Sequence record: MZ997841.1
Origin: Escherichia phage ULINTec7
Reading direction: 5' to 3' (one strand)
Length of the DNA stretch: 46,142 nt
Below are positions 9,659 to 45,769 of the stretch, one piece after another. How positions within the stretch are numbered: position 1 is the stretch's first letter; the number at the start of each line of letters is the position of its first letter. Made by a program: the position numbers and the translations under genes. Below the pieces are notes generated by a model that ran no database searches, was not told the origin of the DNA, and worked only from the letters and a program-made list of their open reading frames with translations.

Positions 9659-9671
9659 TGTATTTATCAGG

Positions 9672-9695: not shown

Positions 9696-9730
9696 TCTTA
9701 TTAAGTACATTAAATAACTGGAGATTGATT

Positions 9731-10453: not shown

Positions 10454-10463
10454 GGAGTTAATC

Positions 10464-10848: not shown

Positions 10849-10854
10849 GTCAAG

Positions 10855-10878
10855 GGTTGTCTCACACGTGAGACAGCC
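10855..10878. promoter_or_regulatory. Conserved palindromic hairpin, copy 4 (loop variant CACACGTG)
   Basis: GGTTGTCTCACACGTGAGACAGCC: the stem is conserved while the central dinucleotide differs. Confidence 0.55.
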
Positions 10879-10908
10879 TTTCATCATATTGATTGGAGGA
10901 TTAACTTT

Positions 10909-11016
10909 ATGAATAACTACGACTCTGATTGGGATTTCTACGATTCAATGCAATCTAAACCAGAAAGGAGGGAGGATGAGTTCGAAACAGATCAAATGTA
11001 CGAGGATTTTTACTAA
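10909..11016 (+). CDS. Hypothetical small acidic protein (35 aa)
   Basis: Short ORF that overlaps the start of the HNH gene; weak call. Confidence 0.2.
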   Translation: MNNYDSDWDFYDSMQSKPERREDEFETDQMYEDFY

Positions 11017-11455: not shown

Positions 11456-13988
11456 TTGGAAAGAATTTGGAAAGAATCGCATACTTGTCATGGATGCTGA
11501 AAGTAAAGGTTTACTTGATGCTATCCGATATGGACACCGTGAAGATGTGCATATCATTTGCTGTATGGATTTGCTTACTACCGAGGAGTTTCTCTTCTTT
11601 GACCCGTATGAGATGCGTGACCCTGAAGCAAGAGAACGCCTGAAGGAATGGGAAGGTCATCAAGATGGAACCTTGGTTGACGGTGTTAACTTCCTGAAGC
11701 ACTGTGAGGCTATTGTGTCGCAGAACTTCCTAGGGTATGACGGTCTTCTCTTTGAGAAAGCATTCCCTGATATTTGGAAAGGCTTTAACTATACCGAGAA
11801 GCGCGGTAAGGGCAGACTCCGTGCTGACCTGTGTCCTATCCGTGTTGTAGATACGCTGGTGATGAGTCGTCTGCTAAACCCAGATAGACGCCTTCCTCCG
11901 CAAGCATATGCCAAAGGCATGGGTAACGTCGCCCCTCACTCAATTGAGGCGCACGGCATCCGTATAGGCCGCTATAAACCAGAGAATGAGGACTGGTCTA
12001 AACTAACTGACCACATGGTTCACCGTGTACGTGAAGACGTGGCAATTGGTCGTGACCTTTTCCTATGGCTTTACAACGGAGAGTGGACGGAGCACAAACG
12101 CCGTGGCGTGAATAAACGTACTGGCCTAGGTATTGAGACAGCCTTCCACATGGAGTCCATTGTGGCGCTGGAGATGAGCCGTCAGGCCGAGCGCGGGTTC
12201 CGTCTGGACATCGACAAGGCTTTGTCCCGATGCGAAGAATTGGACGCTAAGATTGACGAGACAGTCGCAGCGTTCCGCCCTCACATGCCTATGCGTATCA
12301 AGTCTAAACCTTTTAAACCGGAAGAAAAGAATGAAGTATGCCAACGCGCAAATGAGTATGGAGCTAGCAACAATATACCTACTGTCCTTGACCCCTCACA
12401 CTTTCTTCATGCCGAGAGACGAGGAGATCGCAAGACAGTATGGAGTGTCACTACTAAGTCTGGTGATTGGTCGGCTAGTGTCAAGAAAGACTTTCCTCAC
12501 CTTAGAGGAAACCGTAATGACACGCCAAGCATCAAGTGGATTGGCGCTTACTCGCCTGTTACTTTCGAAGAGATTCCCTTGGGTAACAGGGATACAGTTA
12601 AGCAAGTGCTCTATGATTATGGATGGAAAGGTGTTGAATTTAACGATACCGAGCAAGCGCATCTCGATGAGCACGGAGTGTTACCCAAACCTTGGAGTGG
12701 TAAGATAAATGAAAAGTCCCTTACTTTATGGCAAGAAAGAGCCGCACGTGAAGGTAAAACAGTCCCTGATTGGTGCTTGGGTATCGCTGCATGGTACATA
12801 CTCGTATCCCGTCGTGGTCAGATACTCAACCGTGGTGACGTTGAAGCCTTCAACGAGAAGGGAACGTGGCCCTCGCAGGCTGGTGTACGAAAGTGTCGCG
12901 GCCTTGTACCTGTAGCATTCAACAAGGAGCTAGGAATCAATGCGCAGCAATACTACGAGAGGTACGGATATTGGCCTACGTCTGACAAAGATGACGGAGA
13001 GTGGCGTGTTCCAGCTGTTGCTATTAGTATTGGCACTTCTACGTTCCGTATGCGTCATCGTAACGTGGTTAATATTCCTGCCCGTGGCTTGTATCCTTTA
13101 CGTGATTTATTCATAGCAGGGAAAGGCAAGCTAATCCTTGGTTGTGACGGTGCAGGTCTTGAACTGCGTGTCCTGTCTCACTTCATGAATGACCCTGAGT
13201 ACCAAGAGATTGTACTGCACGGTGATATTCATACGCATAACCAGATGAAGGCTGGTCTTCCTAAGCGTGATATGGCGAAGACGTTTATATACGCCTTCCT
13301 CTATGGCTCTGGTATAGCCAACCTTGCAGCAGTATGTGGTGTTACTGAGGAGGAAATGAAGGAAGTTGTGGCAAGATTCGAGATTGAACTGCCGTCTCTT
13401 GCACGTCTTCGTGAGAATGTTATCGCACAAGGTAACAAGTTTGGCTACCTGCAAGCACCTGATGGGCATTGGGGTCGCATCCGCATGTCTGGTGGTGAAC
13501 TTAAAGAGCACACTATGCTTAACGTATTACTCCAGATGACTGGCTCTTTGTGTATGAAATATGCATTAGTAAAGGCATTTGCAGTAATGCGCAAGGAAGG
13601 TGTAGCCTTGGATGCTATGGGAAGCCCTTGTGGTGTGGCTAACGTCCACGATGAAATCCAGATGGAAGTTCCTGAAGAAGAGGTCTTGTACCTTAACTAT
13701 GACCTACCTTTCACCTTAGAAGGGTTTGAAACAGAGAAGGCTGCTGTGAAAGCAGTGTTCGATGCAGAAGAGAAACGTGTTCATGTGGATTCTGAAGGAC
13801 GTATGTGGTCTGCTGCAAACCTCGTTAGTGTTGATGCTGATGCTGGTGTACTTCATTGTCAGCGCCGTTATCACCGTGCTGGGCATATCATTGCCGACGC
13901 CATGACTTGGGCTGGTCAGTATCTGAAGATGCGTTGCCCGATGGCAGGAGAATATAAGATTGGCACAAGTTGGAAGGAAACACACTGA
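11442..13988 (+). CDS. DNA polymerase (family A, T7 gp5-like)
   Basis: N-terminal exo motif ILVMDAESKG resembles T7 MIVSDIEAN; GCDGAGLELRVLSHF, GDIHTHNQ...AKTFIYAFLYG and HDEIQ polymerase motifs. Start is uncertain between 11442 and 11490. Confidence 0.93.
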   Translation: MLDVDWKEFGKNRILVMDAESKGLLDAIRYGHREDVHIICCMDLLTTEEFLFFDPYEMRDPEARERLKEWEGHQDGTLVDGVNFLKHCEAIVSQNFLGYDGLLFEKAFPDIWKGFNYTEKRGKGRLRADLCPIRVVDTLVMSRLLNPDRRLPPQAYAKGMGNVAPHSIEAHGIRIGRYKPENEDWSKLTDHMVHRVREDVAIGRDLFLWLYNGEWTEHKRRGVNKRTGLGIETAFHMESIVALEMSRQAERGFRLDIDKALSRCEELDAKIDETVAAFRPHMPMRIKSKPFKPEEKNEVCQRANEYGASNNIPTVLDPSHFLHAERRGDRKTVWSVTTKSGDWSASVKKDFPHLRGNRNDTPSIKWIGAYSPVTFEEIPLGNRDTVKQVLYDYGWKGVEFNDTEQAHLDEHGVLPKPWSGKINEKSLTLWQERAAREGKTVPDWCLGIAAWYILVSRRGQILNRGDVEAFNEKGTWPSQAGVRKCRGLVPVAFNKELGINAQQYYERYGYWPTSDKDDGEWRVPAVAISIGTSTFRMRHRNVVNIPARGLYPLRDLFIAGKGKLILGCDGAGLELRVLSHFMNDPEYQEIVLHGDIHTHNQMKAGLPKRDMAKTFIYAFLYGSGIANLAAVCGVTEEEMKEVVARFEIELPSLARLRENVIAQGNKFGYLQAPDGHWGRIRMSGGELKEHTMLNVLLQMTGSLCMKYALVKAFAVMRKEGVALDAMGSPCGVANVHDEIQMEVPEEEVLYLNYDLPFTLEGFETEKAAVKAVFDAEEKRVHVDSEGRMWSAANLVSVDADAGVLHCQRRYHRAGHIIADAMTWAGQYLKMRCPMAGEYKIGTSWKETH

Positions 13989-26778: not shown

Positions 26779-29180
26779 TGGAAGTACAAGGTTCATTAGG
26801 GAGGCAAATCCAAGGGATTAGCCAGCAACCTCCAGCAGTACGTCTTGATGGTCAATGCACGACTATGGTGAACATGGTCCCCGATGTAGTGAATGGGACT
26901 CAGTCCCGCATGGGTACAACTCACATTGCTAAGCTCTTGGATGAAGGTACAGATAATATGGCAACGCACCACTATCGCAGGGGCGAGGGGGATGAAGAGT
27001 ATTTCTTCACCTTAAAGAAAGGGCAAGTGCCAGAGATATTTGATAAGCATGGACGCAAGTGCAATGTCGTCTCTCAAGATGCACCTATGACCTACCTTTC
27101 TGAAGTTGTCAGCCCTAGGGAAGATGTGCAATTCATGACTATAGCTGATGTTACTTTTATGCTTAACCGTAGGAAAGTGGTTAAAGCTAGTAATAGGAGG
27201 TCACCTAAAGTCGGAGATAAAGCCATTGTGTTTTGTGCATATGGTCAATATGGTACATCTTATTCTATCATAATTGATGGAACTACAGCTGCTAGTTTTA
27301 AAACACCAGACGGTGGAAGTGCAGAACATGTTGAACAAATCCGAACAGAGCATATCACTTCTGAATTGTACTCCAAGTTACAGCAATGGAGTGGCGTAGA
27401 CGGCTATGAAATACAAAGAGATGGTACGAGTATATTTATAGAGAGACGCGATGGTACAAGTTTCACAGTAACAACTACCGATGGTGCAAAAGGTAAGGAT
27501 TTAGTGGCTATCAAGAATAAAGTTAGCTCTACTGACCTACTCCCTTCTCGTGCGCCTGCTGGCTATAAAGTGCAAGTGTGGCCTACTGGCAGCAAGCCTG
27601 AGTCTCGTTACTGGCTGCAAGCTGAGCCTAAAGAGGGAAACCTTGTGTCTTGGAAAGAAACAATAGCTGCTGATGTATTACTTGGGTTTGATAAAGACAC
27701 CATGCCTTACATTATTGAACGTACAGGTATTATTGACGGCATAGCTCAATTCACGATAAGACAAGGTGATTGGGAAGATCGTAAAGTAGGGGATGACTTG
27801 ACTAACCCTATGCCCTCTTTTATTGATGAGGAAGTGCCCCAGACAATAGGTGGAATGTTCATGGTGCAGAACCGCCTATGCTTTACAGCAGGCGAAGCGG
27901 TTATTGCTTCTCGTACATCATACTTCTTCGATTTCTTTCGTTATACGGTTATCTCTGCATTGGCAACTGACCCATTTGATATTTTCTCAGATGCGAGTGA
28001 AGTCTACCAGCTAAAACATGCAGTGACCTTAGATGGCGCTACCGTGTTGTTCTCTGATAAGTCACAATTCATTTTGCCAGGAGATAAACCGCTAGAGAAA
28101 TCCAACGCCCTACTCAAGCCTGTCACAACATTTGAAGTCAACAATAAAGTTAAACCAGTGGCTACTGGTGAGTCTGTAATGTTTGCTACGAATGACGGTG
28201 CTTACTCTGGTGTCCGAGAGTTCTATACAGACTCTTATAGTGACACTAAGAAGGCACAAGCAATCACAAGTCATGTGAATAAACTTATCGAAGGTAACAT
28301 TACCAACATGGCAGCAAGTACCAATGTCAACCGATTGCTTGTCACTACAGATAAATATCGTAACATAATTTACTGCTACGATTGGTTATGGCAAGGCACA
28401 GATCGTGTACAATCAGCATGGCATGTATGGGAGTGGCCTATGGGTACAAAGGTGCGAGGTATGTTTTACTCTGGTGAATTACTTTATCTACTCCTTGAGC
28501 GAGGCGGTGGCGTCTATCTGGAGAAGATGGACATGGGGGATGCACTAACCTATGGTTTGAAGGACCGCATCCGAATGGATAGGCAAGCAGAGTTGATCTT
28601 CAAGCATTTTAAAGCAGAAGATGAGTGGGTATCTGAACCACTTCCTTGGACTCCTACTAACCTAGAACTTTTGGATTGCATCTTAATAGAAGGGTGGGAT
28701 TCCTATATTGGAGGTTCTTTCCTATTCAAATATAACCCTAGTGATAATACCTTGTCTACAACCTTTGATATGTATGATGATAACCGCGTAAAAGCGAAGG
28801 TTATTGTTGGGCAGATTTACCCTCAAGAGTTTGAACCTACACCTGTAGTCATCAGAGACAGACAAGACCGTGTATCCTATATTGATGTACCTGTTGTGGG
28901 GTTAGTTCACCTTAATCTTGATATGTATCCTGATTTCTCCGTGGAGGTTAAGAATGTGAAGAGCGGTAAAGTACGCAAGGTGCTAGCGTCAAACCGCATA
29001 GGTGGTGCTCTCAACAATACAGTAGGTTATGTTGAACCAAGAGAGGGTGTCTTCAGATTCCCACTGAGGGCTAAGAGTACGGATGCTGTTTATCGTATTA
29101 TTGTAGAATCACCTCACACATTCCAGCTCCGCGATATTGAGTGGGAAGGGAGCTACAATCCAACCAAAAGGAGGGTCTAA
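26778..29180 (+). CDS. Tail tubular protein B (gp12-like)
   Basis: 800 aa; ATG overlaps the upstream stop (TAATG). Confidence 0.7.
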   Translation: MEVQGSLGRQIQGISQQPPAVRLDGQCTTMVNMVPDVVNGTQSRMGTTHIAKLLDEGTDNMATHHYRRGEGDEEYFFTLKKGQVPEIFDKHGRKCNVVSQDAPMTYLSEVVSPREDVQFMTIADVTFMLNRRKVVKASNRRSPKVGDKAIVFCAYGQYGTSYSIIIDGTTAASFKTPDGGSAEHVEQIRTEHITSELYSKLQQWSGVDGYEIQRDGTSIFIERRDGTSFTVTTTDGAKGKDLVAIKNKVSSTDLLPSRAPAGYKVQVWPTGSKPESRYWLQAEPKEGNLVSWKETIAADVLLGFDKDTMPYIIERTGIIDGIAQFTIRQGDWEDRKVGDDLTNPMPSFIDEEVPQTIGGMFMVQNRLCFTAGEAVIASRTSYFFDFFRYTVISALATDPFDIFSDASEVYQLKHAVTLDGATVLFSDKSQFILPGDKPLEKSNALLKPVTTFEVNNKVKPVATGESVMFATNDGAYSGVREFYTDSYSDTKKAQAITSHVNKLIEGNITNMAASTNVNRLLVTTDKYRNIIYCYDWLWQGTDRVQSAWHVWEWPMGTKVRGMFYSGELLYLLLERGGGVYLEKMDMGDALTYGLKDRIRMDRQAELIFKHFKAEDEWVSEPLPWTPTNLELLDCILIEGWDSYIGGSFLFKYNPSDNTLSTTFDMYDDNRVKAKVIVGQIYPQEFEPTPVVIRDRQDRVSYIDVPVVGLVHLNLDMYPDFSVEVKNVKSGKVRKVLASNRIGGALNNTVGYVEPREGVFRFPLRAKSTDAVYRIIVESPHTFQLRDIEWEGSYNPTKRRV

Positions 29181-29902
29181 TGGCTATAGGTTCAGCCGTT
29201 ATGTCTGGTATGTCTTCTATTGGTAGTATGTTTGCAGGCAGCGGTGCAGCAGCCGCTGCTGGAGGTACTGCCGCAGGTGGCGGAGGTTTGCTAGGTTCAC
29301 TAGGCGGATTCCTAAGTGGCTCCACTGCTGGCTTCTCTAATGCTGGCCTCCTTGGTGCTGGCCTTCAAGGGTTAGGCTTGATTGGTGATCTCTTTGGTGG
29401 AAGTGATGAAGCCAAGGCAATGAAGAAAGCACAAGAAGAGCAATGGCGGCAGCAGCTTATTGCTACACAAGAGGCATACAAGACAGTGGCAGACGCAGAG
29501 CGTTCTGCTGCTAAACAGTATCATGCAGATGCAATAAGCAATCAGGCTTCACTACTACAGCAGCGAGCACAGGTTGCATTACTAGCAGGTGCTACTGGTA
29601 CTGGTGGTAACTCTGTATCTTCTATGCTGAATGACTTAGCAGCAGAGGGTGGGAGGAACCAGAGTACAATTATTGATAACTATGAGAATCAGAAGATTAA
29701 CTTCACTAATCAGCTTAAGTCCATCCAGCGAGGTGGGCAGATGCAGATGCGTGAGTTTAAGAAACCTTCTGCTGTGAGCACCTTGGTTCAAGGTATCCCA
29801 AGTCTGGCTTCTGCTTATGTAACTGGTAGCAAGTCGGGTATGGCTTTAGGTAAAGCTCTAACGGATTCTCGTACATATTCATCTGGAACAAGAGGTATTT
29901 AA
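29180..29902 (+). CDS. Internal virion protein
   Basis: Gly/Ala-rich N-terminal region; AGGAGGG SD; position. Confidence 0.55.
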   Translation: MAIGSAVMSGMSSIGSMFAGSGAAAAAGGTAAGGGGLLGSLGGFLSGSTAGFSNAGLLGAGLQGLGLIGDLFGGSDEAKAMKKAQEEQWRQQLIATQEAYKTVADAERSAAKQYHADAISNQASLLQQRAQVALLAGATGTGGNSVSSMLNDLAAEGGRNQSTIIDNYENQKINFTNQLKSIQRGGQMQMREFKKPSAVSTLVQGIPSLASAYVTGSKSGMALGKALTDSRTYSSGTRGI

Positions 29903-32850
29903 TGGCAATTGAGCGACAAGCAGTACAAGGTCTGCCACAAGTGCAGGCCACTTCTCCTAATGTCATGACCTTTGCACCTCAGCAAGCTGGAGGTGTGGAG
30001 GCTGGCGTAGCTTCTACCTCCGGTAGTCGATTTATCGAAGACCTTATTCGAGCAGCCAGTAGTGTAGCTGATGTAACCACTGGTATCCTTAATCAAAAGA
30101 TTGAGGAAGATAAGGTTGTTCAAATGGAACGGGCATATAATGGACTGATGCCTTCTGAGGATGCAACTCGTGGTGGCGCTCGTGCTAACATGCTTGTCAA
30201 AGCTCAACTGCTAGCTAATGATGAAGCAGCACGAATGAAAGACATGGCTACTCGTTTCCAAGGAACAGATGACGAGTGGACACAACTCATGGTTGACTCT
30301 CGTAATGAGATGCAGAATAAGCTGTTCCAGCAATACCCTGAGTTGCAAGGTGACAAAGATACTATGCGTATGGTCACTAATGTCTTCCAAGAACAGCAGC
30401 CTCAAATTTGGGCTACACGAACCCAGCATAAACTTGACCGTGAACAAGCAGACCGTGAGGACACCTTTGACGGGCGAGTGGCTTCTACTTGGGATTCTAG
30501 TATTGACCCAGAGGCTTCTGGTTATGCCCTACAGGAGCGAATCCGCGAGGGGTTTACTCAAGGGCTATTACCTGAGCAGATGCATAAGAAGCTGGTAGAG
30601 CGAGCTATTTCACTTGCTCAGGGTGGTGATATTAGCATGGCTGAAGCCTTGAAGTACGTGAAGGACGACAAGGGTGTTTCTGTCTATGCTAAGAATCCGC
30701 AGCTTATCACAGCTATCACTAGTGGTAATGCAGTTTGGGCTAGGAATAATGTTGCTGATGTGACTCGCATGTCTTTTGAAGTCAAAGAATCCTATCTTGC
30801 AGGTGACTTGACGGATGAAGAATTACTGGAGCGAGCACAGCACATTAATAGCCTGACAGGAAACTCTGTCTTCTCTAATCCAGAACTAGAAGCACTGATG
30901 CGTCAACGAGCTAAGCAGAATGCAGAGCTAGGTGCAATGCAGGATATGCGACGTGAACTTTACTCTGACCGCATGACTGGCTTCCAAGGTAAGACAGATA
31001 AAGAGAAGAAAGCCTACATTGATGTTATCAAACAGGATAGCCAACTATATGCAGACCAGCAAATCAAGCAGCGCGGATTGGACCCTTACAGCCAAGAGGC
31101 TGAAGCTATCCGTGGTGCAGTAGAAGTGCAGCGCCTGCAATTCATGAACTCCAAAGGCTTAGTGGATGATACCTTTGAGTCTCGTATCAAAGCCATGGAG
31201 TCTATGCTATCACCTGAGCACTTCGCTAAAGGCGAACCACAGGAGTTAATGACTATTCGTCAGTTGTGGGAACAGTTACCAGAAGAAAGCCGAGGTGTCT
31301 TTGGTGATACGGTGAATGGCTATATGGATAACTACAACACTGCATTACAAATGGGGGAGACGCCTTTGCAGGCTGCAAGGTTTGCCCGTGAAGCACAGCA
31401 GAAATTCTCTCGTACTGAGAAAGAAACCAAGAAGTTCAACTCAGCTATTGGAGATGCACTGGATGAGGTATCGGGTGCTGGCTGGTTTGATGGTAAAACC
31501 GAAGTGTCTGACTTAGGTAAAGCTATTGCAGAAGAAGAGTTACGAGCTAAGGCCAATATGCTGTGGTCTAGCGGTATGCGTAACATGGATTCCATCAAGA
31601 AGGCTTTAATTACTTGGGGCAATAAACGCTACACTCAATCAGAGGATGCAAAGACTTCCGGTGGTTATTTCATTAAAGGTGATTACACTTCTGCATCTGA
31701 CATGCTTATGTCTGTTGGGAAAGGTGTAAACCCTACCGATGTACCTCTGGCTCTTGGTAGGTATGTAGAAACACAAATGCCAGAATTGAAGAAGGAACTT
31801 CAAGAGTGGGAAACTAAGGATGATGTATACATTGATTACAATGAACAGAAAGGTACTTTCGTGATTCGTGCTGGTGCAGCAGGTCGCCCTCTTTCTGGAG
31901 TAATCCCTGTCACCTCTTTAGATACCACTTCACTGCTAGACTCTGCCTATCAGAAGAAAGTAGAAGAACGAGATAAAGGTGAATATGTTCACCCATATCG
32001 TACAGATATCGGTGCACAAGAACCCATGCCAGCTAAGCCAACTGCCAAGGATATTGGTAAATTTGGACTAGCTAATTTCCTCATGTCTTCTGCCTTTGCT
32101 TCTGGTGAGAACCTACCTTCTAACTTCGAGATTAACTATAGAGGCAATATGCAACAATTCTATGACAAGCTAGCTATGGATGAGAATGGCGATAAGCTGG
32201 GCTTCAACAAAGCCACAGGAACCTTCACACCGTACAAAGATGCACATGGCGAGTCGGTAGGCTATGGTCACTTCCTTACGGAAGAAGAAAAGAGAAATGG
32301 GTACATTAAGATTGGCGACGAACTAGTCCCGTATCGCGGCTCTATGTCTCAGCTCACTGAGAGTAAGGCCCGTGCTCTTATGGAACAAGATGCCAAGAAG
32401 CATGTACCTCCAACTCGTGATTGGAAAATCCCATTCGACCAGATGCATCCGGCACAGCAGCGCGGTTTAATGGATTTAACCTATAACTTAGGTAAAGGTG
32501 GAATCCAGAATGCACCGCGTGCTCTTGCTGCATTCAAGGCAGGTAAGCTTACAGAAGGCTTTATCGAAATGTTGGGTACTGCATCAAGTGAAGGTAAGCG
32601 TATTCCTGGTTTACTGAAGCGACGCGCTGAGGCTTACAATATGGCAGCTGCCGGTGGTGTACCTAAGATTACCGAAGTAGAGACTCGTGAAGATGGGTCT
32701 ATGTGGGTTAAGTTCGGTGGACCTATGCCAGCAGGTTCTGTATCTGCATGGACTCATAAACGTATTGGCGCTGATGGCTGGTATCAGGTTTATGAGGCTG
32801 CACCTACCAAGTTAGCTAAAGGCTCTAAGGTGGGTAAAGTTAAGTTGTAG
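29902..32850 (+). CDS. Internal virion protein with C-terminal lysozyme-like domain
   Basis: 982 aa; C-terminal YKDAHGESVGYGHFLT...LTYNLGKGGI resembles the T4 lysozyme segment YKDTEGYYTIGIGHLLT...MVFQMGETGV. Confidence 0.65.
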   Translation: MAIERQAVQGLPQVQATSPNVMTFAPQQAGGVEAGVASTSGSRFIEDLIRAASSVADVTTGILNQKIEEDKVVQMERAYNGLMPSEDATRGGARANMLVKAQLLANDEAARMKDMATRFQGTDDEWTQLMVDSRNEMQNKLFQQYPELQGDKDTMRMVTNVFQEQQPQIWATRTQHKLDREQADREDTFDGRVASTWDSSIDPEASGYALQERIREGFTQGLLPEQMHKKLVERAISLAQGGDISMAEALKYVKDDKGVSVYAKNPQLITAITSGNAVWARNNVADVTRMSFEVKESYLAGDLTDEELLERAQHINSLTGNSVFSNPELEALMRQRAKQNAELGAMQDMRRELYSDRMTGFQGKTDKEKKAYIDVIKQDSQLYADQQIKQRGLDPYSQEAEAIRGAVEVQRLQFMNSKGLVDDTFESRIKAMESMLSPEHFAKGEPQELMTIRQLWEQLPEESRGVFGDTVNGYMDNYNTALQMGETPLQAARFAREAQQKFSRTEKETKKFNSAIGDALDEVSGAGWFDGKTEVSDLGKAIAEEELRAKANMLWSSGMRNMDSIKKALITWGNKRYTQSEDAKTSGGYFIKGDYTSASDMLMSVGKGVNPTDVPLALGRYVETQMPELKKELQEWETKDDVYIDYNEQKGTFVIRAGAAGRPLSGVIPVTSLDTTSLLDSAYQKKVEERDKGEYVHPYRTDIGAQEPMPAKPTAKDIGKFGLANFLMSSAFASGENLPSNFEINYRGNMQQFYDKLAMDENGDKLGFNKATGTFTPYKDAHGESVGYGHFLTEEEKRNGYIKIGDELVPYRGSMSQLTESKARALMEQDAKKHVPPTRDWKIPFDQMHPAQQRGLMDLTYNLGKGGIQNAPRALAAFKAGKLTEGFIEMLGTASSEGKRIPGLLKRRAEAYNMAAAGGVPKITEVETREDGSMWVKFGGPMPAGSVSAWTHKRIGADGWYQVYEAAPTKLAKGSKVGKVKL

Positions 32851-32862
32851 TACCTAACTCAA

Positions 32863-32888
32863 GGCTTGTCTCACATGTGAGACAGGTC
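32863..32888. promoter_or_regulatory. Conserved palindromic hairpin, copy 6
   Basis: GGCTTGTCTCACATGTGAGACAGGTC, between the internal virion protein genes. Confidence 0.6.
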
Positions 32889-32914: not shown

Positions 32915-35900
32915 ATGGAACAAGATATTAATACTAATTGGGCTGGTTATGTCCAGTCTACTCCTGAGCCGTTTTCTATTGAGGCGGCTCCGGTATCGGC
33001 TCCTACGATACGCCAGCGTAATGAGCTACAAGAGCAAGTCCTTGAAGCTAAAGCAGACGCGGATATCATAGGTGCTGTAGGTGCTGCCTTCCAGAATGAG
33101 TGGTTGGCATTCGGAGGTAAGAGATGGTATGACCGTGCCACTGCTGACTTCACACCTCAACCTGATTTTGAAATCCAACCAGAGCAACGTGAAGCTCTTC
33201 GCTTCAAATACGGAACGGATATGATGCAGACAATCACTGAGGGTGTTCGTTCTGAGGATGAATTAAACTTCCGTATTCAGAATGCTGATGAAGATCTTGA
33301 GCGCAATAAGCGCATTGCTCAGGCTGGCTGGGCTGGTTCTGTGGCAACTATTGGCGCTGCTGTGCTTGACCCTGTAGGCTGGGTTGCCTCTATACCAACT
33401 GGCGGTGCAGCTAAAGTTGGCCTTGTAGGCCGTGCTGTGCGTGGCGCTATTGCCGCTGGCGTGAGTAACGCCGCTATTGAATCCGTGTTAGTCCAAGGTG
33501 ACATGACCCGTGATTTAGATGACATTATGGTAGCACTAGGCTCAGGTATGGCTATGGGTGGTGTTATCGGCGCTGTGGCGCGTGGCAGGGCCGCCAAACT
33601 CAGCGACCAAGGGGATGACAGGGCTGCGAGCGTTGTGCGAAGTGCAGACGCAGGTGATCGGTATATCCGTGCTGTTGCGGATGACAGTATAGGTGCGATG
33701 CGCGTTAAGGGCGAGGAGGTGCTTACTGAGGGCGCATTTGATATATCTAGTAAAGGCGAAGACTTGCTGAAAACATTGCAGAGGGAAGGAAACTCTATTG
33801 ATATGGCCCCTCGCCGCTGGGCCGGAACTCTGTCTGCCCTTGGTACTGTCGTACATTCCTCTCAGGATGCAAGTGTACGCGGTCTTGGTGCTCGTCTGTT
33901 TGAGTCCCCGCAAGGCTTAGGTGCACAGAAGGCATCGGCTAGTCTCATGCAGAATACTAACTTGAACCGTCTGAAATCTGCTGATATGAATCGTTTCAAC
34001 GATGGGTTCGATTTATGGCTCAAAGAGAATAATATCAATCCGGTTGCAGGTCATACTAACTCTCACTATGTGCAGCAATATAATGAGAAGGTATGGGAGG
34101 CTGTACGCATCGGTATGAATGAGTCTACGCCTAAGTCTATCCGTATGGCAGCAGAGGGGCAGCAAGCTATGTATCGTGAAGCCTTAGCATTACGTCAACG
34201 CTCTGGTGAAGCTGGGTTTGAAAAGGTTAAAGCAGATGATAAGTACATGCCTGATATTTTTGACAGTATGAAGGCTCGTCGTCAATTCGGTATGCACGAT
34301 AAAGAGGACATCATTGAGCTATTCTCTCGTGCATACCAGAATGGTTCTCGTAAGGTTCCAAAGGAAGTGGCTGATGATATTGCACGTGCACAAGTAAACC
34401 GTGTTGTGGATGCCACCCTGACAGGACGTATGAGTTTCGAAAAAGCTATGTCTGGTCAGACTAAGGCAGAATATGAAGCAATAATGCGCAAGGCAGGCTT
34501 CAGTGATGAAGAAATTGAAAAGATGGTAGAAGCTCTGGATAATAAAGAAACCAGAGATAATATCTCTAACCGAGCTAAGATGAGTTTAGGCTTAGATGTT
34601 ACTCAAGAATACAATGGCATTCGTATGCGTGACTTTATGAATACTAACGTGGAAGAGTTAACAGATAACTACATGAAGGAAGCGGCAGGTGGTGCTGCCT
34701 TGGCTCGTCAAGGTTTCTCTACCTATCAGGCTGCACTTAATGCAATTGACCTTGTAGAGCGAAATGCACGAAATGCAACTAAAGATACAAAAGCACACGC
34801 ACAATTTGAAGCGGAGTCTGCTAATATTCGTCAATCAGAACCTGATTACAAGAAGGCACAAGAGAAGATTGAAGAGTTAAAGAAGAGACTTAAATTGAAA
34901 GAGAAAGATGAAGCAGCAGGTCTGGCTATTGATGAAGAAATCCGTCAAATGCGAGAAGGTCTTCGCCTAATTATGGGTAAATCTATTGATGCGGACCCAC
35001 AGGCTTTGTCTACTAAAATGCTGCGTCGTGGTCGTGACATTACAGGTGTACTTCGCTTAGGTCAGATGGGCTTCGCACAGCTAGGTGAACTTGCTAACTT
35101 CATGGGTGAGTTTGGTATTGCTGCAACCACTATAGCTTTAGGTAAGCAATTCCGCTTTACATCTAAAGCTTTGCGGAGCGGGGATGGCTTCTTCCGAGAT
35201 AAGAACTTGGCAGAAGTAGAGAGGATGGTAGGTTACATTGGTGAGGATAACTGGATAACAACCAAGGGTGCACGTCCAGATGAGTTTGGTGATGTAACCA
35301 CAGTAAGAGGGATGATGGCTCACTTTGACCAATCCATGAACTCAATACGTCGTGCTCAGACCAACCTATCGCTCTTCCGCATGGCACAGGGTTCTCTGGA
35401 GCGAATGACTAATAGGCAAATAGCCTTGTCTTTCATTGACCACCTTGAAGGCAAGAAGATTATTCCTCAGAAGAAACTGGAGGAACTTGGTCTTACTCAG
35501 GGGTTCATGACTAACCTACAGAAGCACTATGATGCTAACTCTAAGGGTTCTGGCTTGCTTGGATTTGATACAATGCCTTATGCCATGGGTGAAACTTTAG
35601 CTAATGCTATTCGTCGTAAGTCAGGTCTAATTATCCAACGTAACTTCATTGGTGATGAAGGGATCTGGATGAACAAAGCGCTTGGTAAAACTTTTGCACA
35701 GCTTAAGTCTTTCTCTTTGGTATCTGGTGAGAAGCAATTTGGTCGAGGTATTCGCCACGATAAGATTGGTCTTGCTAAGAAGACAGCCTATGGGTTTGCT
35801 TTAGGTTCCATAGTATATGCAGCGAAAGCTTATGTGAACTCTATTGGACGAGAAGACCAAGATGAATATCTGGAAGAGAAACTATCCCCTAAAGGGTTGG

Positions 35901-36223
35901 CTTTTGGCGCTATGGGTATGATGAGTACAACTGCTGTGTTCAGCTTAGGTGGAGACTTCTTAGGCGGCCTAGGTGTTCTCCCTTCTGAGTTAGTACAATC
36001 CCGTTATGAGGCTGGCTTTCAGACTAAGGGTTTGATAGACCAAATACCACTAGTAGGTGTTGGTCAAGATGCATATCGTTTAGCAGATTCTATAACTAAA
36101 TATGCAGAGGGTGATACAGAAGGTGTAGATGTGGCACGTAGGGCTTTACGCTTAGTGCCTCTAACTAATGTAATAGGAATCCAGAACGCATTGCGTTATG
36201 GCTTAGATGAACTGGAGGATTGA
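32915..36223 (+). CDS. Large internal virion protein (gp16-like)
   Basis: 1102 aa, called by position and size. Confidence 0.65.
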   Translation: MEQDINTNWAGYVQSTPEPFSIEAAPVSAPTIRQRNELQEQVLEAKADADIIGAVGAAFQNEWLAFGGKRWYDRATADFTPQPDFEIQPEQREALRFKYGTDMMQTITEGVRSEDELNFRIQNADEDLERNKRIAQAGWAGSVATIGAAVLDPVGWVASIPTGGAAKVGLVGRAVRGAIAAGVSNAAIESVLVQGDMTRDLDDIMVALGSGMAMGGVIGAVARGRAAKLSDQGDDRAASVVRSADAGDRYIRAVADDSIGAMRVKGEEVLTEGAFDISSKGEDLLKTLQREGNSIDMAPRRWAGTLSALGTVVHSSQDASVRGLGARLFESPQGLGAQKASASLMQNTNLNRLKSADMNRFNDGFDLWLKENNINPVAGHTNSHYVQQYNEKVWEAVRIGMNESTPKSIRMAAEGQQAMYREALALRQRSGEAGFEKVKADDKYMPDIFDSMKARRQFGMHDKEDIIELFSRAYQNGSRKVPKEVADDIARAQVNRVVDATLTGRMSFEKAMSGQTKAEYEAIMRKAGFSDEEIEKMVEALDNKETRDNISNRAKMSLGLDVTQEYNGIRMRDFMNTNVEELTDNYMKEAAGGAALARQGFSTYQAALNAIDLVERNARNATKDTKAHAQFEAESANIRQSEPDYKKAQEKIEELKKRLKLKEKDEAAGLAIDEEIRQMREGLRLIMGKSIDADPQALSTKMLRRGRDITGVLRLGQMGFAQLGELANFMGEFGIAATTIALGKQFRFTSKALRSGDGFFRDKNLAEVERMVGYIGEDNWITTKGARPDEFGDVTTVRGMMAHFDQSMNSIRRAQTNLSLFRMAQGSLERMTNRQIALSFIDHLEGKKIIPQKKLEELGLTQGFMTNLQKHYDANSKGSGLLGFDTMPYAMGETLANAIRRKSGLIIQRNFIGDEGIWMNKALGKTFAQLKSFSLVSGEKQFGRGIRHDKIGLAKKTAYGFALGSIVYAAKAYVNSIGREDQDEYLEEKLSPKGLAFGAMGMMSTTAVFSLGGDFLGGLGVLPSELVQSRYEAGFQTKGLIDQIPLVGVGQDAYRLADSITKYAEGDTEGVDVARRALRLVPLTNVIGIQNALRYGLDELED

Positions 36224-39728: not shown

Positions 39729-40007
39729 ATGTCTAATAGTTATAGCACACAACCCCTTACAGGTAAGTCTGCTCGTAAGCAGATACAACCTGTGAGTGAA
39801 GCCCTGATGCTTCCTGTAGTTTACGAGGACACTGTTGAGAAGAAAGGTGATGTTATTAATGATGCCACCAAATCAGGTAAGCAGAAAGGAGCCATGGTGT
39901 GTCTTGATACACATGATACACTGGTTATTGCTATCGCAGTTGATGGCAAAGAAGATTCCAATTGGCTGACCACGTTATTAGCGGTCACGACTATTACCCC
40001 AGCTTAA
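39729..40007 (+). CDS. Hypothetical protein, paralog A of a tandem pair
   Basis: 92 aa; shares MSN..., LKKK.D.IN, SGKQKG.MV, IAIA and TP.A with the next ORF. Confidence 0.55.
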   Translation: MSNSYSTQPLTGKSARKQIQPVSEALMLPVVYEDTVEKKGDVINDATKSGKQKGAMVCLDTHDTLVIAIAVDGKEDSNWLTTLLAVTTITPA

Positions 40008-40019
40008 GAGGAGAATTAC

Positions 40020-40307
40020 ATGTCTAATTATGGAAACGCAGGTACTGTTACTGGTCAAGCTTTTCGAGTAAAAACTGTACAAACCACTGCAACGGCAATC
40101 CCTTTGCCTATTGTTGCTGAAGCAGACCTTAAGAAGAAAGATCACCCTATCAACATTAAACACCTATCTGGCAAACAGAAAGGCTCCATGGTTGCTGTAG
40201 AGAAAGCAGACAACTCCTTGTACATCGCTATTGCACGTGGTAGTGAACCAACTGACCCTTGGGATGCAACCACTATGGAGACGGAACCTGTAACACCTGT
40301 AGCTTAA
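40020..40307 (+). CDS. Hypothetical protein, paralog B of a tandem pair
   Basis: 95 aa; see paralog A. Confidence 0.55.
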   Translation: MSNYGNAGTVTGQAFRVKTVQTTATAIPLPIVAEADLKKKDHPINIKHLSGKQKGSMVAVEKADNSLYIAIARGSEPTDPWDATTMETEPVTPVA

Positions 40308-40328
40308 TTGTAACAGATGAGGTCAATA

Positions 40329-40673
40329 ATGCTTAACAAATATTTCAAGCGACGCGAGTTCGCTTGCCGTTGTGGGTGCGGTACATCCACTGTTGATGCT
40401 GAGGTTGATGCTGAGTTATTACATGTGCGTGAGCACTTTGGTGCTCCTGTAGTTATTACTTCTGGACACCGCTGTGCTAAGCACAATGCCAATGTAGGTG
40501 GCGCTAAGAACTCCATGCATCTTACTGGTAAGGCTGCTGACATTAAAGTGTCTGGCATATTACCTTCTGAAGTGCATAAGTATCTTACTAGCAAATACCA
40601 AGGCAAGTATGGTATCGGTAAGTATAACTCCTTCACTCACATCGATGTACGGGATGGTTGTGCACGATGGTAA
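40329..40673 (+). CDS. Endolysin, peptidase M15 (zinc D-Ala-D-Ala carboxypeptidase / L-Ala-D-Glu peptidase type)
   Basis: ITSGHRCAKHN...MHLTGKAADI...FTHIDVRD matches the His/Asp/His zinc-ligand pattern of the family. Confidence 0.7.
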   Translation: MLNKYFKRREFACRCGCGTSTVDAEVDAELLHVREHFGAPVVITSGHRCAKHNANVGGAKNSMHLTGKAADIKVSGILPSEVHKYLTSKYQGKYGIGKYNSFTHIDVRDGCARW

Positions 40674-40798
40674 GATGTGTTGAATGGTGTGAGCGTATGG
40701 TTGCCCAAGCTGCCGAGGATGGCAACTATGATGACTGGAAGAACTACTCTGACTTGTTAGCTCAATGGAAAGGGAGATGCAATGAAAAAGCTGTTTAA
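40667..40798 (+). CDS. Hypothetical small Cys-rich protein (43 aa)
   Basis: Hand-translated ORF overlapping the endolysin stop. Confidence 0.25.
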   Translation: MVRCVEWCERMVAQAAEDGNYDDWKNYSDLLAQWKGRCNEKAV

Positions 40799-40931
40799 GT
40801 CTAAGAAGGTTGTAGGTGCACTGGTTGCACTTGTTATTGCTCTTGTTTCTGTAGGTCTTGGTGTAGACCTTGGCTCTGGCACGGAATCCTCTGTGACAGA
40901 TGTGGTCTGCCAAGTGATTACCTGTGAATAA
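40782..40931 (+). CDS. Small membrane protein (49 aa), lysis-associated candidate
   Basis: N-terminal basic stretch then transmembrane segment VVGALVALVIALVSVGLGV; GGGAG SD. Confidence 0.35.
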   Translation: MKKLFKSKKVVGALVALVIALVSVGLGVDLGSGTESSVTDVVCQVITCE

Positions 40932-41145
40932 GTTTCTAGAAGTGCTGGCAGGTCTTATTGGCCTGCTTGTCTCTGCTAAGAAGAAACAAGAAGAGAAGGA
41001 GGCACAAAGTGAAGCGAATCATGTTAGTGACAATCCTGCTGATTGGTTCGCTGACCACTTCCGGGTGTCAGCAGGCGTTACCAGAGAAAGCAATGGTGAA
41101 ACCTCTGAGGCCGACGCTGACGGAAGTTTACGAGGTAGACGATAA
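40924..41145 (+). CDS. Candidate i-spanin-like membrane protein
   Basis: GTG start; N-terminal transmembrane segment FLEVLAGLIGLLVSA then a charged region; contains an out-of-frame embedded ORF. Confidence 0.3.
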   Translation: MNKFLEVLAGLIGLLVSAKKKQEEKEAQSEANHVSDNPADWFADHFRVSAGVTRESNGETSEADADGSLRGRR

Positions 41146-41218
41146 GGTCTGCTTTAGTAAGCCTGACGCTACAAAATTAGGTTTGTATATTCTTTCGCTA
41201 GAACGCGGATATAATTAA
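40958..41218 (+). CDS. Candidate o-spanin-like lipoprotein overlapping the previous ORF
   Basis: Signal-like region ending in lipobox-like LTTSGC. Start uncertain between 40958 and the internal ATG at 41021. Confidence 0.35.
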   Translation: MACLSLLRRNKKRRRHKVKRIMLVTILLIGSLTTSGCQQALPEKAMVKPLRPTLTEVYEVDDKVCFSKPDATKLGLYILSLERGYN

Positions 41219-41270: not shown

Positions 41271-41349
41271 GTAAGATAGCGCCGTTCTTTTGAGCGGCCT
41301 ATTACTAGCCAATCTTCATAGGGAGGGTTGGAAAGTAATAGGAGATAGC

Positions 41350-43248
41350 ATGGCTAAATTAACCAAACCTAATACTGAAGGAATCTTGCATAAAGGACAA
41401 TCTTTGTATGAGTACCTTGATGCGAGAGTTTTAACATCAAAGCCATTTGGTGCTGCAGGTGACGCCACTACTGATGATACGGAGGTTATAGCTGCTTCAT
41501 TAAACTCTCAGAAAGCTGTCACAGTCTCAGATGGTGTATTCTCTAGCTCTGGTATTAATAGTAATTACTGTAACTTAGACGGTAGGGGTAGTGGCGTGCT
41601 AAGTCACCGTTCCAGTACAGGTAATTACTTAGTATTTAACAATCTACGTGCAGGTCGCTTAAGTAATATTACGGTAGAAAGTAATAAGGAGACTGATACA
41701 ACTCAGGGGCAGCAGGTATCTCTTGCTGGTGGAAGTGATGTTACTGTAAGTGACGTTAACTTCTCAAACGTTAAAGGTACTGGTTTCAGTTTAATCGCAT
41801 ACCCTAATGATGCGCCACCTGATGGACTTATGATTAAAGGCATTCGAGGTAGCTATTCCGGCTATGCTACTAATAAGGCAGCAGGATGCGTACTTGCTGA
41901 CTCCTCAGTTAACTCACTCATAGATAACGTCATTGCTAAGAACTACCCTCAGTTCGGAGCAGTAGAGTTGAAAGGTACAGCCAGTTACAACATAGTCAGT
42001 AATGTTATAGGGGCAGATTGCCAGCATGTAACTTACAACGGCACTGAAGGGCCAATAGCCCCTTCTAATAACCTTATCAAGGGGGTGATGGCTAATAACC
42101 CTAAGTATGCAGCGGTTGTTGCAGGCAAAGGAAGTACGAACTTAATCTCAGACGTGCTAGTAGATTACTCAACTTCTGATGCTAGGCAGGCTCATGGTGT
42201 TACCGTAGAAGGGTCTGATAACGTCATAAATAATGTGCTTATGTCAGGATGTGATGGTACTAACTCTTTAGGACAAGGGCAGACTGCTACAATTGCACGC
42301 TTTATAGGTACAGCTAATAACAACTATGCGTCTGTATTTCCTAGCTACAGTGCTACAGGTGTTATTACTTTCGAATCCGGCTCTACCCGTAACTTCGTAG
42401 AGGTAAAGCACCCTGGCAGGAGAAACGACCTTCTCAGTTCTGCTAGTACTATTGACGGTGCAGCTACTATTGACGGCACTAGTAATAGTAACGTAGTGCA
42501 CGCACCTGCCTTAGGGCAGTACATAGGTAGTATGTCAGGCAGGTTCGAATGGCGGATTAAGTCCATGTCACTCCCTTCAGGAGTTCTTACTTCTGCTGAT
42601 AAGTACAGAATGCTTGGAGATGGTGCTGTGTCATTAGCTGTAGGTGGGGGCACTTCTTCTCAAGTTCGCCTATTTACTTCTGATGGTACTTCTCGGACAG
42701 TGGCCTTCACCAACGGTAACGTGCGTCTTTCTACCAGTAGCACAGGCTATTTGCAGTTAGGTGCTGATGCAATGACCCCAGATAGTACTGGTACATACGC
42801 ATTAGGTTCCGCCAGTCGAGCATGGTCTGGCGGTTTTACTCAAGCAGCATTCACTGTTACCTCAGATGCTCGGTGTAAAACAGAACCTCTTACTATCTCA
42901 GATGCCTTACTGGATGCTTGGTCTGAAGTTGACTTTGTGCAGTTTCAGTATTTGGATCGGGTTGAGGAGAAGGGTGCAGACTCAGCTAGATGGCACTTTG
43001 GTGTCATCGCTCAGCGAGCTAAGGAAGCTTTCGAACGTCACGGCATAGATGCACACCGCTATGGCTTCTTGTGCTTCGACAGTTGGGATGCTGTATACGA
43101 GGAAGATGCCAATGGCTCTCGTAAGCTGATTACACCAGCAGGTTCCCGCTACGGTATTCGTTACGAGGAAGTACTGATATTAGAGGCTGCATTGATGCGG
43201 CGGACTATTAAGCGTATGCAGGAAGCACTAGCTGCCCTTCATAAGTAA
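41350..43248 (+). CDS. Tailspike 1: beta-helix polysaccharide depolymerase-like protein with C-terminal intramolecular chaperone domain
   Basis: 632 aa from the ATG at 41350 (AGGAG SD). Repetitive Gly/Ser/Thr/Asn/Val-rich beta-helix-like sequence. C-terminus SDARCK...GIRYEEVLILEAA is homologous to the endosialidase C-terminus. Confidence 0.7.
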   Translation: MAKLTKPNTEGILHKGQSLYEYLDARVLTSKPFGAAGDATTDDTEVIAASLNSQKAVTVSDGVFSSSGINSNYCNLDGRGSGVLSHRSSTGNYLVFNNLRAGRLSNITVESNKETDTTQGQQVSLAGGSDVTVSDVNFSNVKGTGFSLIAYPNDAPPDGLMIKGIRGSYSGYATNKAAGCVLADSSVNSLIDNVIAKNYPQFGAVELKGTASYNIVSNVIGADCQHVTYNGTEGPIAPSNNLIKGVMANNPKYAAVVAGKGSTNLISDVLVDYSTSDARQAHGVTVEGSDNVINNVLMSGCDGTNSLGQGQTATIARFIGTANNNYASVFPSYSATGVITFESGSTRNFVEVKHPGRRNDLLSSASTIDGAATIDGTSNSNVVHAPALGQYIGSMSGRFEWRIKSMSLPSGVLTSADKYRMLGDGAVSLAVGGGTSSQVRLFTSDGTSRTVAFTNGNVRLSTSSTGYLQLGADAMTPDSTGTYALGSASRAWSGGFTQAAFTVTSDARCKTEPLTISDALLDAWSEVDFVQFQYLDRVEEKGADSARWHFGVIAQRAKEAFERHGIDAHRYGFLCFDSWDAVYEEDANGSRKLITPAGSRYGIRYEEVLILEAALMRRTIKRMQEALAALHK

Positions 43249-43333: not shown

Positions 43334-45769
43334 ATGATTCAAAGACTAGGTTCTTCATTAGTTAAATTCAAGAGTAAGATAGCGGGTGCAATCTGGCGCA
43401 ACTTGGATGACAAGCTCACCGAGGTTGTATCTCTTAAGGACTTTGGGGCCAAAGGTGATGGTAAGACTAACGACCAAGATGCAGTAAATGCAGCGATGGC
43501 TTCAGGTAAGAGAATTGACGGTGCTGGTGCTACTTACAAAGTATCATCTTTACCTGATATGGAGCGGTTCTATAATACACGCTTCGTATGGGAACGTTTA
43601 GCGGGTCAACCTCTTTACTATGTGAGTAAAGGTTTTATCAATGGTGAACTCTATAAAATCACGGATAATCCTTATTACAATGCTTGGCCTCAAGACAAAG
43701 CGTTTGTATATGAGAATGTGATATATGCACCTTACATGGGTAGCGACCGTCACGGTGTTAGTCGTCTGCATGTATCATGGGTTAAGTCTGGTGACGATGG
43801 TCAAACATGGTCTACTCCAGAGTGGTTAACTGCCCTGCATCCAGATTACCCTACAGTGAACTATCATTGTATGAGTATGGGTGTATGTCGCAACCGTCTG
43901 TTTGCCATGATTGAAACACGTACTTTAGCCAAGAACGCACTAACCAATTGTGCATTGTGGGACCGCCCCATGTCTCGTAGTCTGCATCTCACTGGTGGTA
44001 TCACTAAAGCTGCAAATCAGCGATATGCAACAATACATGTACCAGATCACGGACTATTCGTGGGTGATTTTGTTAACTTCTCTAACTCTGCGGTAACAGG
44101 TGTATCAGGTGATATGGCTGTTGCAACTGTAATAGATAAGGACAACTTCACGGTTCTTACACCTAACCAGCAGACTTCAGATTTGAATAACGCTGGAAAA
44201 AGTTGGCACATGGGTACTTCTTTCCATAAGTCTCCATGGCGTAAGACAGATCTTGGTCTAATCCCTCGTGTCACAGAGGTGCATAGCTTTGCTACTATTG
44301 ATAATAATGGCTTTGTTATGGGCTATCATCAAGGTGATGTAGCTCCACGAGAAGTTGGGCTTTTCTACTTCCCTGATGCTTTCAATAGCCCATCTAATTA
44401 TGTTCGTCGTCAGATACCATCTGAGTATGAACCAGATGCGTCAGAACCATGCATCAAGTACTATGACGGTGTATTATACCTTATCACTCGTGGCACTCGT
44501 GGTGACAGACTTGGAAGCTCTTTGCATCGTAGTAGAGATATAGGTCAGACTTGGGAGTCACTAAGATTTCCACATAATGTGCATCATACTACTTTACCGT
44601 TTGCTAAGGTAGGAGATGACCTTATTATGTTTGGTTCAGAACGTGCAGAAAACGAATGGGAAGCAGGTGCACCAGATGATCGTTACAAGGCATCTTATCC
44701 TCGTACCTTCTATGCACGATTGAATGTAAACAAATGGAATGCAGATGATATTGAATGGGTTAACATCACAGACCAAATCTATCAGGGTGACATTGTGAAC
44801 TCTAGTGTAGGTGTAGGTTCTGTTGTAGTTAAAGACAGCTACATTTACTATATCTTTGGTGGTGAAAACCATTTCAACCCAATGACTTATGGTGACAACA
44901 AAGATAAAGATCCATTTAAAGGCCACGGACACCCTACTGATATATACTGCTATAAGATGCAGATTGCAAATGACAATCGTGTATCTCGTAAGTTTACATA
45001 TGGTGCAACTCCTGGTCAAGCTATACCTACTTTCATGGGTACTGATGGTGTTCGTATTATCCCTGCTCCACTTCACTTAGCAGGAGAGGTGGTTGCAGCA
45101 GATATTACTGTCGAACATCTTACCCTGAAGGCAAGTACAAGTGCTGATATTCGCTCAGAGATGCTGATGGAAGGTGAGTATGGGTTTATTGGTAAAACTA
45201 TACCAACGGATAACCCGACAGCCCAACGTGTTATCATATCTGGTGGAGATGGTACAGCAGCAGATAAAGGTGCGCAAATTACCTTACACGGAGCAGGTTC
45301 TAGTACCTCTAGACGCGCAGTATATAATGCCAATGAGCACTTGTTCCAAAGTGGGGCCATTATGCCATACAATGATAACGTGTACCCTGCTGGCGGTCCT
45401 CGTAATAGATTCACTACTATCCACCTTACAAGTGACCCTATTATTACGTCTGATGCCACTCATAAGTACGGCTCACAAGGTATTGATGAGCAAGTACTAA
45501 AGGCATGGGGTAAGGTTTACTTCAAGCAGTACAAGTTGATTGGCGAGATGTCTCGTGGTGTACATCACACTCACTTTGGTGTATTGGCACAAGATATTGT
45601 AGCTGCTTTTGCATCCGAAGGGTTAGATGCAATCGACTTCGGCATTGTCTCCTTCGAAGAAGGTCAGTTTGGTGTTAGATATAGTGAAATCTTAATCTTG
45701 GAAGCTGCCTATACTCGCTATCGTCTTGATAAATTAGAGGAGATGTATGCCGCTAATAAAATCAGTTAA
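43334..45769 (+). CDS. Tailspike 2: endosialidase-like (endo-N-acetylneuraminidase) with C-terminal intramolecular chaperone domain
   Basis: 811 aa. Two Asp-box motifs, SGDDGQTW and SRDIGQTW. N-terminal DFGAKGDGKTNDQDAVNAA. C-terminal TSDATHK...GVRYSEILILEAA chaperone-like region. AAGGAGG SD. Confidence 0.8.
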   Translation: MIQRLGSSLVKFKSKIAGAIWRNLDDKLTEVVSLKDFGAKGDGKTNDQDAVNAAMASGKRIDGAGATYKVSSLPDMERFYNTRFVWERLAGQPLYYVSKGFINGELYKITDNPYYNAWPQDKAFVYENVIYAPYMGSDRHGVSRLHVSWVKSGDDGQTWSTPEWLTALHPDYPTVNYHCMSMGVCRNRLFAMIETRTLAKNALTNCALWDRPMSRSLHLTGGITKAANQRYATIHVPDHGLFVGDFVNFSNSAVTGVSGDMAVATVIDKDNFTVLTPNQQTSDLNNAGKSWHMGTSFHKSPWRKTDLGLIPRVTEVHSFATIDNNGFVMGYHQGDVAPREVGLFYFPDAFNSPSNYVRRQIPSEYEPDASEPCIKYYDGVLYLITRGTRGDRLGSSLHRSRDIGQTWESLRFPHNVHHTTLPFAKVGDDLIMFGSERAENEWEAGAPDDRYKASYPRTFYARLNVNKWNADDIEWVNITDQIYQGDIVNSSVGVGSVVVKDSYIYYIFGGENHFNPMTYGDNKDKDPFKGHGHPTDIYCYKMQIANDNRVSRKFTYGATPGQAIPTFMGTDGVRIIPAPLHLAGEVVAADITVEHLTLKASTSADIRSEMLMEGEYGFIGKTIPTDNPTAQRVIISGGDGTAADKGAQITLHGAGSSTSRRAVYNANEHLFQSGAIMPYNDNVYPAGGPRNRFTTIHLTSDPIITSDATHKYGSQGIDEQVLKAWGKVYFKQYKLIGEMSRGVHHTHFGVLAQDIVAAFASEGLDAIDFGIVSFEEGQFGVRYSEILILEAAYTRYRLDKLEEMYAANKIS

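Follow-up and report, generated by a model that had tools for sequence, protein, structure and literature searches.

The GH24 lysozyme domain

The window analysed here, which is the whole stretch of 46,142 nucleotides of Escherichia phage ULINTec7 (sequence record MZ997841.1), carries at positions 29902 to 32850 a gene for an internal virion protein of 982 amino acids, in whose C-terminal part a first-pass annotation, made from the letters alone, had recognised a resemblance to T4-type lysozyme. The gene and the parts of its product, as delimited by the open reading frame (ORF) and by AlphaFold2 prediction, with local confidence given as the predicted local distance difference test (pLDDT), are the following:

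29902..32850, plus strand: gene of a gp15-like internal virion (ejection) protein with a lysozyme domain, ATG start, 982 codons
29902..31971, plus strand: N-terminal, mostly alpha-helical region (residues 1 to about 690), predicted equivalent of the T7 gp15 periplasmic tunnel by AlphaFold2 and Foldseek
31966..32136, plus strand: low-confidence linker (residues 689-707), then a conserved short-helix segment (residues 708-745) leading into the lysozyme domain
32137..32646, plus strand: GH24 (T4/P22-type) lysozyme domain (residues about 746-915)
32659..32847, plus strand: small beta-rich C-terminal domain (residues about 920-982), predicted by AlphaFold2 with pLDDT above 90

The domain near the C-terminus is a GH24 lysozyme, as follows from the profile searches and from the structural model. 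The Pfam family PF00959 (Phage_lysozyme) matched residues 776-910 with 38.6 bits (E = 1.6e-9) over profile positions 9-124 of 125, the curated gathering cutoff of this family being 22.3 bits. The phmmer search against the sequences of the PDB returned T4 lysozyme variants only, the best of them with E = 7e-4, where residues 777-890 of the query corresponded to residues 17-133 of T4 lysozyme, and a profile made of 30 full-length homologues (38-98% identity), on which all conservation counts given below are also based, matched T4 lysozyme slightly better (E = 1.5e-4). The homologues came from a word-index search, in which the full-length query found 29 of them, and the C-terminal 252 residues alone found four proteins. 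The AlphaFold2 model of residues 700-982, predicted from 32 sequences with a mean pLDDT of 88.6 and a predicted template modelling score (pTM) of 0.81, has the two-lobe fold of the T4 and P22 lysozymes, and its Foldseek neighbours were GH24 lysozymes or T4 lysozyme fusion constructs, mostly with a probability of 0.9-1.00, including the DLP12 and phage 21 endolysins, T4 lysozyme, and the AB5075UW and PHAb11 muramidases.

Thus, the resemblance noticed in the first-pass annotation is real, since the lysozyme fold is found by the PF00959 score, by the AlphaFold2 model and by its GH24 neighbours in Foldseek, but two particulars have to be amended. The term "T4-type" is right as to the lysozyme family, while the closest structural relatives of the predicted domain are GH24 enzymes of the P22/lambdoid branch and not T4 lysozyme itself; and the domain lies near the C-terminus and not at it, as about 63 more residues come after. 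The P22 gp19 and T4 gpe proteins of the same family (GH24, PF00959) are free soluble endolysins of about 150-164 amino acids that serve for exit, whereas here the domain is tethered to an ejection protein of 745 residues.

The candidate catalytic residues are encoded as follows:

32182..32184, plus strand: codon of E761, putative catalytic general acid (equivalent of Glu11 of T4 lysozyme)
32239..32241, plus strand: codon of D780 (equivalent of Asp20 of T4 lysozyme), placed by phmmer and hhalign alignment
32254..32256, plus strand: codon of S785 (equivalent of Thr26 of T4 lysozyme), placed by alignment to T26

Both the Glu and the Asp expected of such an enzyme are present. Alignment with phmmer, hmmsearch and hhalign places Y778-K779-D780 on Y18-K19-D20 of T4 lysozyme and S785 on T26; position 780 is Asp in 28 of the 30 homologues, the other two having a four-residue insertion with Asp residues alongside, and at position 785 there are 24 Ser, three Thr and three Asn (Ser or Thr in 27/30). 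E761 is invariant (30/30) and stands at the C-terminal end of the predicted helix 746-762, just before a beta-hairpin, like Glu11 in T4 lysozyme. Compared with P22 gp19 and T4 gpe, the domain has about 10 additional residues between Glu and Asp, and for this reason the local hhalign alignments to the lysozymes of T4 and P22 stop short of the catalytic Glu; the forced global hhalign alignment pairs E761 with E11 at low confidence. Therefore, E761 is likely, but not proven, to be the equivalent of Glu11 of T4 lysozyme.

Two other readings of the domain bear on these residues. Instead of being a hydrolytic lysozyme, it could act as a lytic transglycosylase in the manner of the R protein of phage lambda or of T7 gp16 and produce 1,6-anhydro-muropeptides, with the same role at entry; this is highly unlikely, as a Glu/Asp/Ser set speaks for a muramidase that works by hydrolysis and against a transglycosylase of the lambda type. 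It is extremely unlikely that the domain is devoid of catalysis and persists as a structural remnant that only aids the assembly or anchoring of the core or tunnel, or that it is mainly a second lysin acting at the end of infection. The unusual insertion of 10 residues between Glu and Asp would fit with such a loss or change of function, as would the beta-hairpin (residues 801-812) that takes the place of a helix of T4 lysozyme; however, the catalytic residues stay invariant or nearly so down to 38% identity, the conservation is denser in the lysozyme domain than elsewhere in the protein, and an activity of the SP6 and K1-5 orthologues in virion zymograms is cited in reviews (PMC5380687), all of which speak against an inert domain.

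Orthologues and the other parts of the protein

The profile PHROG 4290 ("lysozyme domain-containing protein") covers residues 1-982 of the protein with 1504.6 bits, and with K1E gp35, which has the same length of 982 amino acids, 966 of 982 residues are identical (98%), the 16 substitutions sparing E761, D780 and S785, so that in practice this is the same protein. The gene occupies the same place between the gp14-like and gp16-like genes as K1E gp35 and K1-5 gp38 do in these Vectrevirus phages. SP6 gp36 (Zindervirus; labelled "35" in AY370673) shares the architecture, including the terminal beta domain, and the synteny, with 42% amino acid identity overall and about 63% over the C-terminal 243 residues, its N-terminal body being more divergent than its C-terminal part. 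By full-length similarity and the kept gene position the gene is a member of the K1E gp35/SP6 gp36 orthologous group (PHROG 4290), the gene neighbours are the same in K1E, AAPEc6 and SP6, and it is accordingly assigned, on the grounds of sequence, as the orthologue of K1E gp35, K1-5 gp38 and SP6 gp36. In the GenBank records of relatives it is labelled "lysozyme domain-containing protein" or "DNA ejectosome component".

At the DNA level the gene is 98.5% identical to that of Vectrevirus PDP21P3, 98.4% to that of Escherichia phage Mt1B1_P10, and 92-97% to those of many K1E/K1-5-like coliphages. Because of this near identity to Vectrevirus relatives, the phage is placed in Vectrevirus (Autographiviridae, Molineuxvirinae) as a K1E/K1-5-like member. 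The window also contains a K1 endosialidase tailspike (43334-45769) and a second tailspike (41290-43248), as in the K1-5 group. Among the 50 tblastn matches listed of 172 records, none belonged to a Pseudomonas phage.

A lysozyme on a gp15-like ejection protein is already described for K1E, K1-5, SP6 and phiKMV; the finding thus holds but is an ordinary one, a muralytic domain on this protein of the SP6/K1-5/K1E-type and phiKMV-type podoviruses having been in the literature since 2004. SP6 Gp36 (107 kDa) and K1-5 Gp38 (109 kDa) were listed as virion-associated lysozymes by Latka et al. 2017, citing Moak & Molineux 2004, and the C-terminal lysozyme domain of phiKMV Gp36 was experimentally active (muralytic) and thermostable (PMC5380687). 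According to Swanson & Cingolani 2022 (PMC8954989), the lysozyme activity, which in T7 belongs to gp16, resides in K1E (gp35, 982 amino acids) and in K1-5 on the gp15-like protein. For a phiKMV-like phage, the T4-lysozyme-like domain of the gp15-like protein was resolved in a 2026 bioRxiv preprint (10.64898/2026.05.18.726046), in which 127 Autographivirales genomes with such a domain were counted, 31 of them having it at the C-terminal end of the periplasmic-tunnel protein; in Ar-KM gp42 it comprises residues 740-881. The phiKMV gp36 and Ar-KM gp42 proteins are likewise gp15-like tunnel proteins with a C-terminal T4-lysozyme-like domain, which in Ar-KM was seen by cryo-electron microscopy.

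The full-length AlphaFold2 model (pLDDT 75, pTM 0.49) consists of residues 1-91 of low confidence, a helical body at about 90-690, the linker at 689-707 with pLDDT below 50, and a C-terminal module at about 708-982. The segment 708-745 before the lysozyme domain contains the invariant residues T714, A715, G722, F726, S729, G735, L738, P739, N741 and E743. The top Foldseek matches of the full-length model were the T7 gp15 chains of the mature core or ejectosome (9jyy_G, 7k5c_A and 6yt5_A), with E-values of 7e-7 to 4e-6, a probability of 1.00 and about 700 aligned columns, yet with TM scores of just 0.17-0.29. No sequence match to T7 gp15 was found for the N-terminal body with phmmer and profile searches against the PDB, and no Pfam family at E up to 10 on residues 1-733. 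Gene order and predicted structure together make the protein the probable gp15 equivalent among the ejection proteins, which agrees with the first-pass annotation of a 982-amino acid internal virion protein: its ORF is exact, its flanking genes are gp14-like and gp16-like, and its best structural matches, at low TM scores, are T7 gp15 chains.

The lysozyme fold ends near residue 915; after it comes a small beta domain of about 63 residues, distinct from the fold and predicted with high confidence, with strands at 923-928, 934-938, 960-964 and 978-981, a helix at 949-954, and the invariant residues I923, D931, G932, S933, M934, F938, I955, G959, W960, V963, L971 and G978. This domain is the sole element here that is not already described, and it is conserved in the Vectrevirus/Zindervirus lineage. 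On the terminal 67 residues no Pfam family was detected at E up to 10. The profile of the domain was searched against 1.84 billion representative proteins, and all single-stretch matches scanned sit directly C-terminal to PF00959 in proteins of 380-964 amino acids, with the exception of P0038, which is without a Pfam match. The multi-stretch matches were repeat proteins (aRib surface proteins, WD40 and others), in which a stretch of only 20-30 residues was covered, and they were set aside as uninformative. The phiKMV gp36 protein has 898 amino acids, and if Ar-KM gp42 is about as long, it has no counterpart of the 63-residue terminal domain. Tentatively, and with considerable doubt, the beta domain might be an unrecognised peptidoglycan-binding or subunit-docking module that holds the enzyme level with the sacculus once the ejectosome is assembled.

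The ejection module and the two wall-degrading enzymes

The gene is flanked by two other genes of internal virion proteins:

29141..29902, plus strand: upstream gp14-like internal virion protein (PF24072 T7_gp14, E = 1.4e-32; PHROG 805), the true start of which may be downstream of the ORF start
32915..36223, plus strand: downstream gp16-like internal virion protein of 1102 amino acids (PHROG 342)

The order of the genes for the nozzle (PF25675), the gp14-like (PF24072), the 982-residue gp15-like and the gp16-like (PHROG 342) proteins matches the T7-type order. In the sequence TAATG the stop codon TAA of the preceding gene and the ATG of the 982-codon gene overlap, and a ribosome-binding site AAGAGG is located 8 nucleotides 5' of the start; genes of a structural operon are usually coupled as tightly as this.

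The profile PHROG 342 ("internal virion protein with endolysin domain") matches the 1102-residue protein only from profile position 162 of 1235, and in this protein neither an SLT/LT domain nor any Pfam family at all was detected. For these two reasons the protein is judged to be a homologue of gp16 that lacks the transglycosylase domain present at the N-terminus of the T7 protein. In T7 gp16 that domain comprises residues 1-156, and the SP6 gp16-like partner, with 1270 amino acids versus 1102 here, is 168 amino acids longer (PMC8954989). The missing first positions of PHROG 342 (about 160) may be taken as that transglycosylase domain, and such an absence would complement the gain of the lysozyme on the gp15-like protein. 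T7 has the same three-gene ejection module with the same proposed step, a local cleavage of murein that lets the ejectosome span the periplasm, but its enzyme is an SLT-type transglycosylase at the N-terminus of gp16, whereas here it is a GH24 lysozyme on the gp15-like protein and at the opposite terminus. The case is an illustration of the murein-cutting domain shifting between the ejection-protein subunits within Autographiviridae.

Between the gp15-like and gp16-like genes there is a stem-loop (32861-32888) with a perfect 13-bp stem, GGCUUGUCUCAC AUGU GUGAGACAGGUC, and the 64-nucleotide intergenic region that contains it folds with -21.1 kcal/mol (z = -2.9). The stem-loop is identical in K1E and AAPEc6, and SP6 keeps it with a compensatory change of C-G to A-U. 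It may be an element of RNA processing or stability, or a terminator, and it was not flagged by a simple terminator scan.

The other wall-degrading enzyme is encoded in the lysis cluster:

40329..40673, plus strand: M15_3 zinc peptidase, presumed endolysin (PF08291, E = 3.9e-31; PHROG 894 endolysin)
40958-41218: Rz-like spanin ORF, near the M15_3 endolysin

The M15_3 ORF as such spans 40317-40673, the start at 40329 being implied by the 345-nucleotide endolysin coding sequence of AAPEc6. It carries the zinc motif H-x6-D with a terminal His, and around the HxxxxxxD motif it matches the zinc D-Ala-D-Ala carboxypeptidase 1lbu. The annotation of the related phage AAPEc6 contains no other peptidoglycan hydrolase. 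The first-pass annotation had set an M15 peptidase at 40329 apart from the lysozyme-like domain and had counted two distinct wall-degrading activities in the phage; both points hold, as the M15_3 peptidase belongs to its own lysis cluster with the spanin and is distinct from the GH24 domain on the ejection protein. The proposed division of labour, with GH24 at entry and M15 at exit, rests on the literature for the SP6, K1-5 and K1E orthologues (PMC5380687, PMC8954989, PMC4837284), in which the C-terminus of SP6 Gp36 was found similar to lysozyme and M15_3 was named the putative endolysin (PMC4837284).

If the GH24 domain were mainly a second lysin, as in the alternative mentioned above together with the inert domain, this would be in line with the M15 peptidase of this phage group having lacked biochemical proof as the endolysin (PMC4837284); against it stands the position of the gene within the structural operon of ejection proteins, 7.5 kb from the endolysin/spanin cluster (40329-41218).

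Thus, the gene very probably encodes the middle one of three ejection proteins of a K1E/K1-5-like podovirus, with a gp15-like body and a tethered GH24 muramidase used at entry. In support of this reading the analysis shows the ORF, the lysozyme fold with its conserved catalytic residues, the synteny, a predicted structure like that of gp15, the gp16 homologue without the transglycosylase and the orthology to K1E gp35, and the literature on orthologues suggests the presence in the virion, the muralytic activity and the role at entry. In the T7 virion, gp15 is stored within the capsid on the portal; upon infection it leaves through the tail and assembles anew into a tube that spans the periplasm. 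By analogy, the 982-residue protein would be stored in the capsid core, and after the tailspikes had stripped the capsule and the gp14-like protein had opened the outer membrane, it would be ejected following the gp14-like protein, enter the periplasm and refold there. The flexible linker would join the tunnel body to the GH24 muramidase (residues about 746-915, with the Glu761/Asp780/Ser785 set), with the small beta domain after it, and the tethered lysozyme domain may cut the glycan strands locally and open the murein. This would let the gp15-like tunnel, together with the gp16-like component of the inner membrane, pass the sacculus and bridge the envelope, with the DNA following; at lysis another enzyme would act, namely the M15 peptidase along with holin and spanin.

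Several points weigh against this interpretation. The likeness to T7 gp15 is seen in the predicted structure only, with low TM scores and without a match at the level of sequence, and the pairing of E761 with Glu11, likely but not proven, rests on invariance, on the predicted helix position and on a global alignment of low confidence. In addition, by analogy with T7 gp16 as reported by Moak and Molineux in 2000, the enzyme activity may be dispensable in good growth conditions. The value of the result is that of an annotation check, by which separate enzymes for entry (GH24 on the ejection protein) and for exit (the M15 peptidase) may be assigned in the phage.

Other features of the window

Just 5' of the endolysin, at 39729-40307, there are two tandem paralogous ORFs (92 and 95 amino acids), both assigned to PHROG 2725 "acetyl-CoA acetyltransferase"; the coverage extends only over positions 4-99 of 238, so that the annotation of both looks doubtful. 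No known RNA family was found by Rfam over the whole window, and no terminal direct repeat was found in it.

The primase/helicase seems to be split at 6722-9497 into a Toprim ORF (6722-7897, 391 amino acids) and a DnaB_C ORF (8751-9497, 248 amino acids), between which an endonuclease ORF with HNH_3 and HTH_7 is located (7992-8492), whereas the primase/helicase of AAPEc6 is a single gene of 662 amino acids. The split could reflect the insertion of a homing endonuclease or an intron, and no group I intron was detected there by Rfam at the gathering threshold. A second HNH_3 endonuclease ORF (10976-11455, 159 amino acids) lies directly 5' of an 848-residue ORF (11442-13988) and overlaps its start; the latter corresponds by position and length to the DNA polymerase of AAPEc6 (848 amino acids, 9542-12088), directly 5' of which no HNH_3-type ORF is annotated in that phage. 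In the early region, at 1244-1880, an element of about 62 nucleotides is present in three copies with the common core GCTCTTTAACAATCTGG and a spacing of 312 and 263 nucleotides, and these repeats could be regulatory or origin-like.

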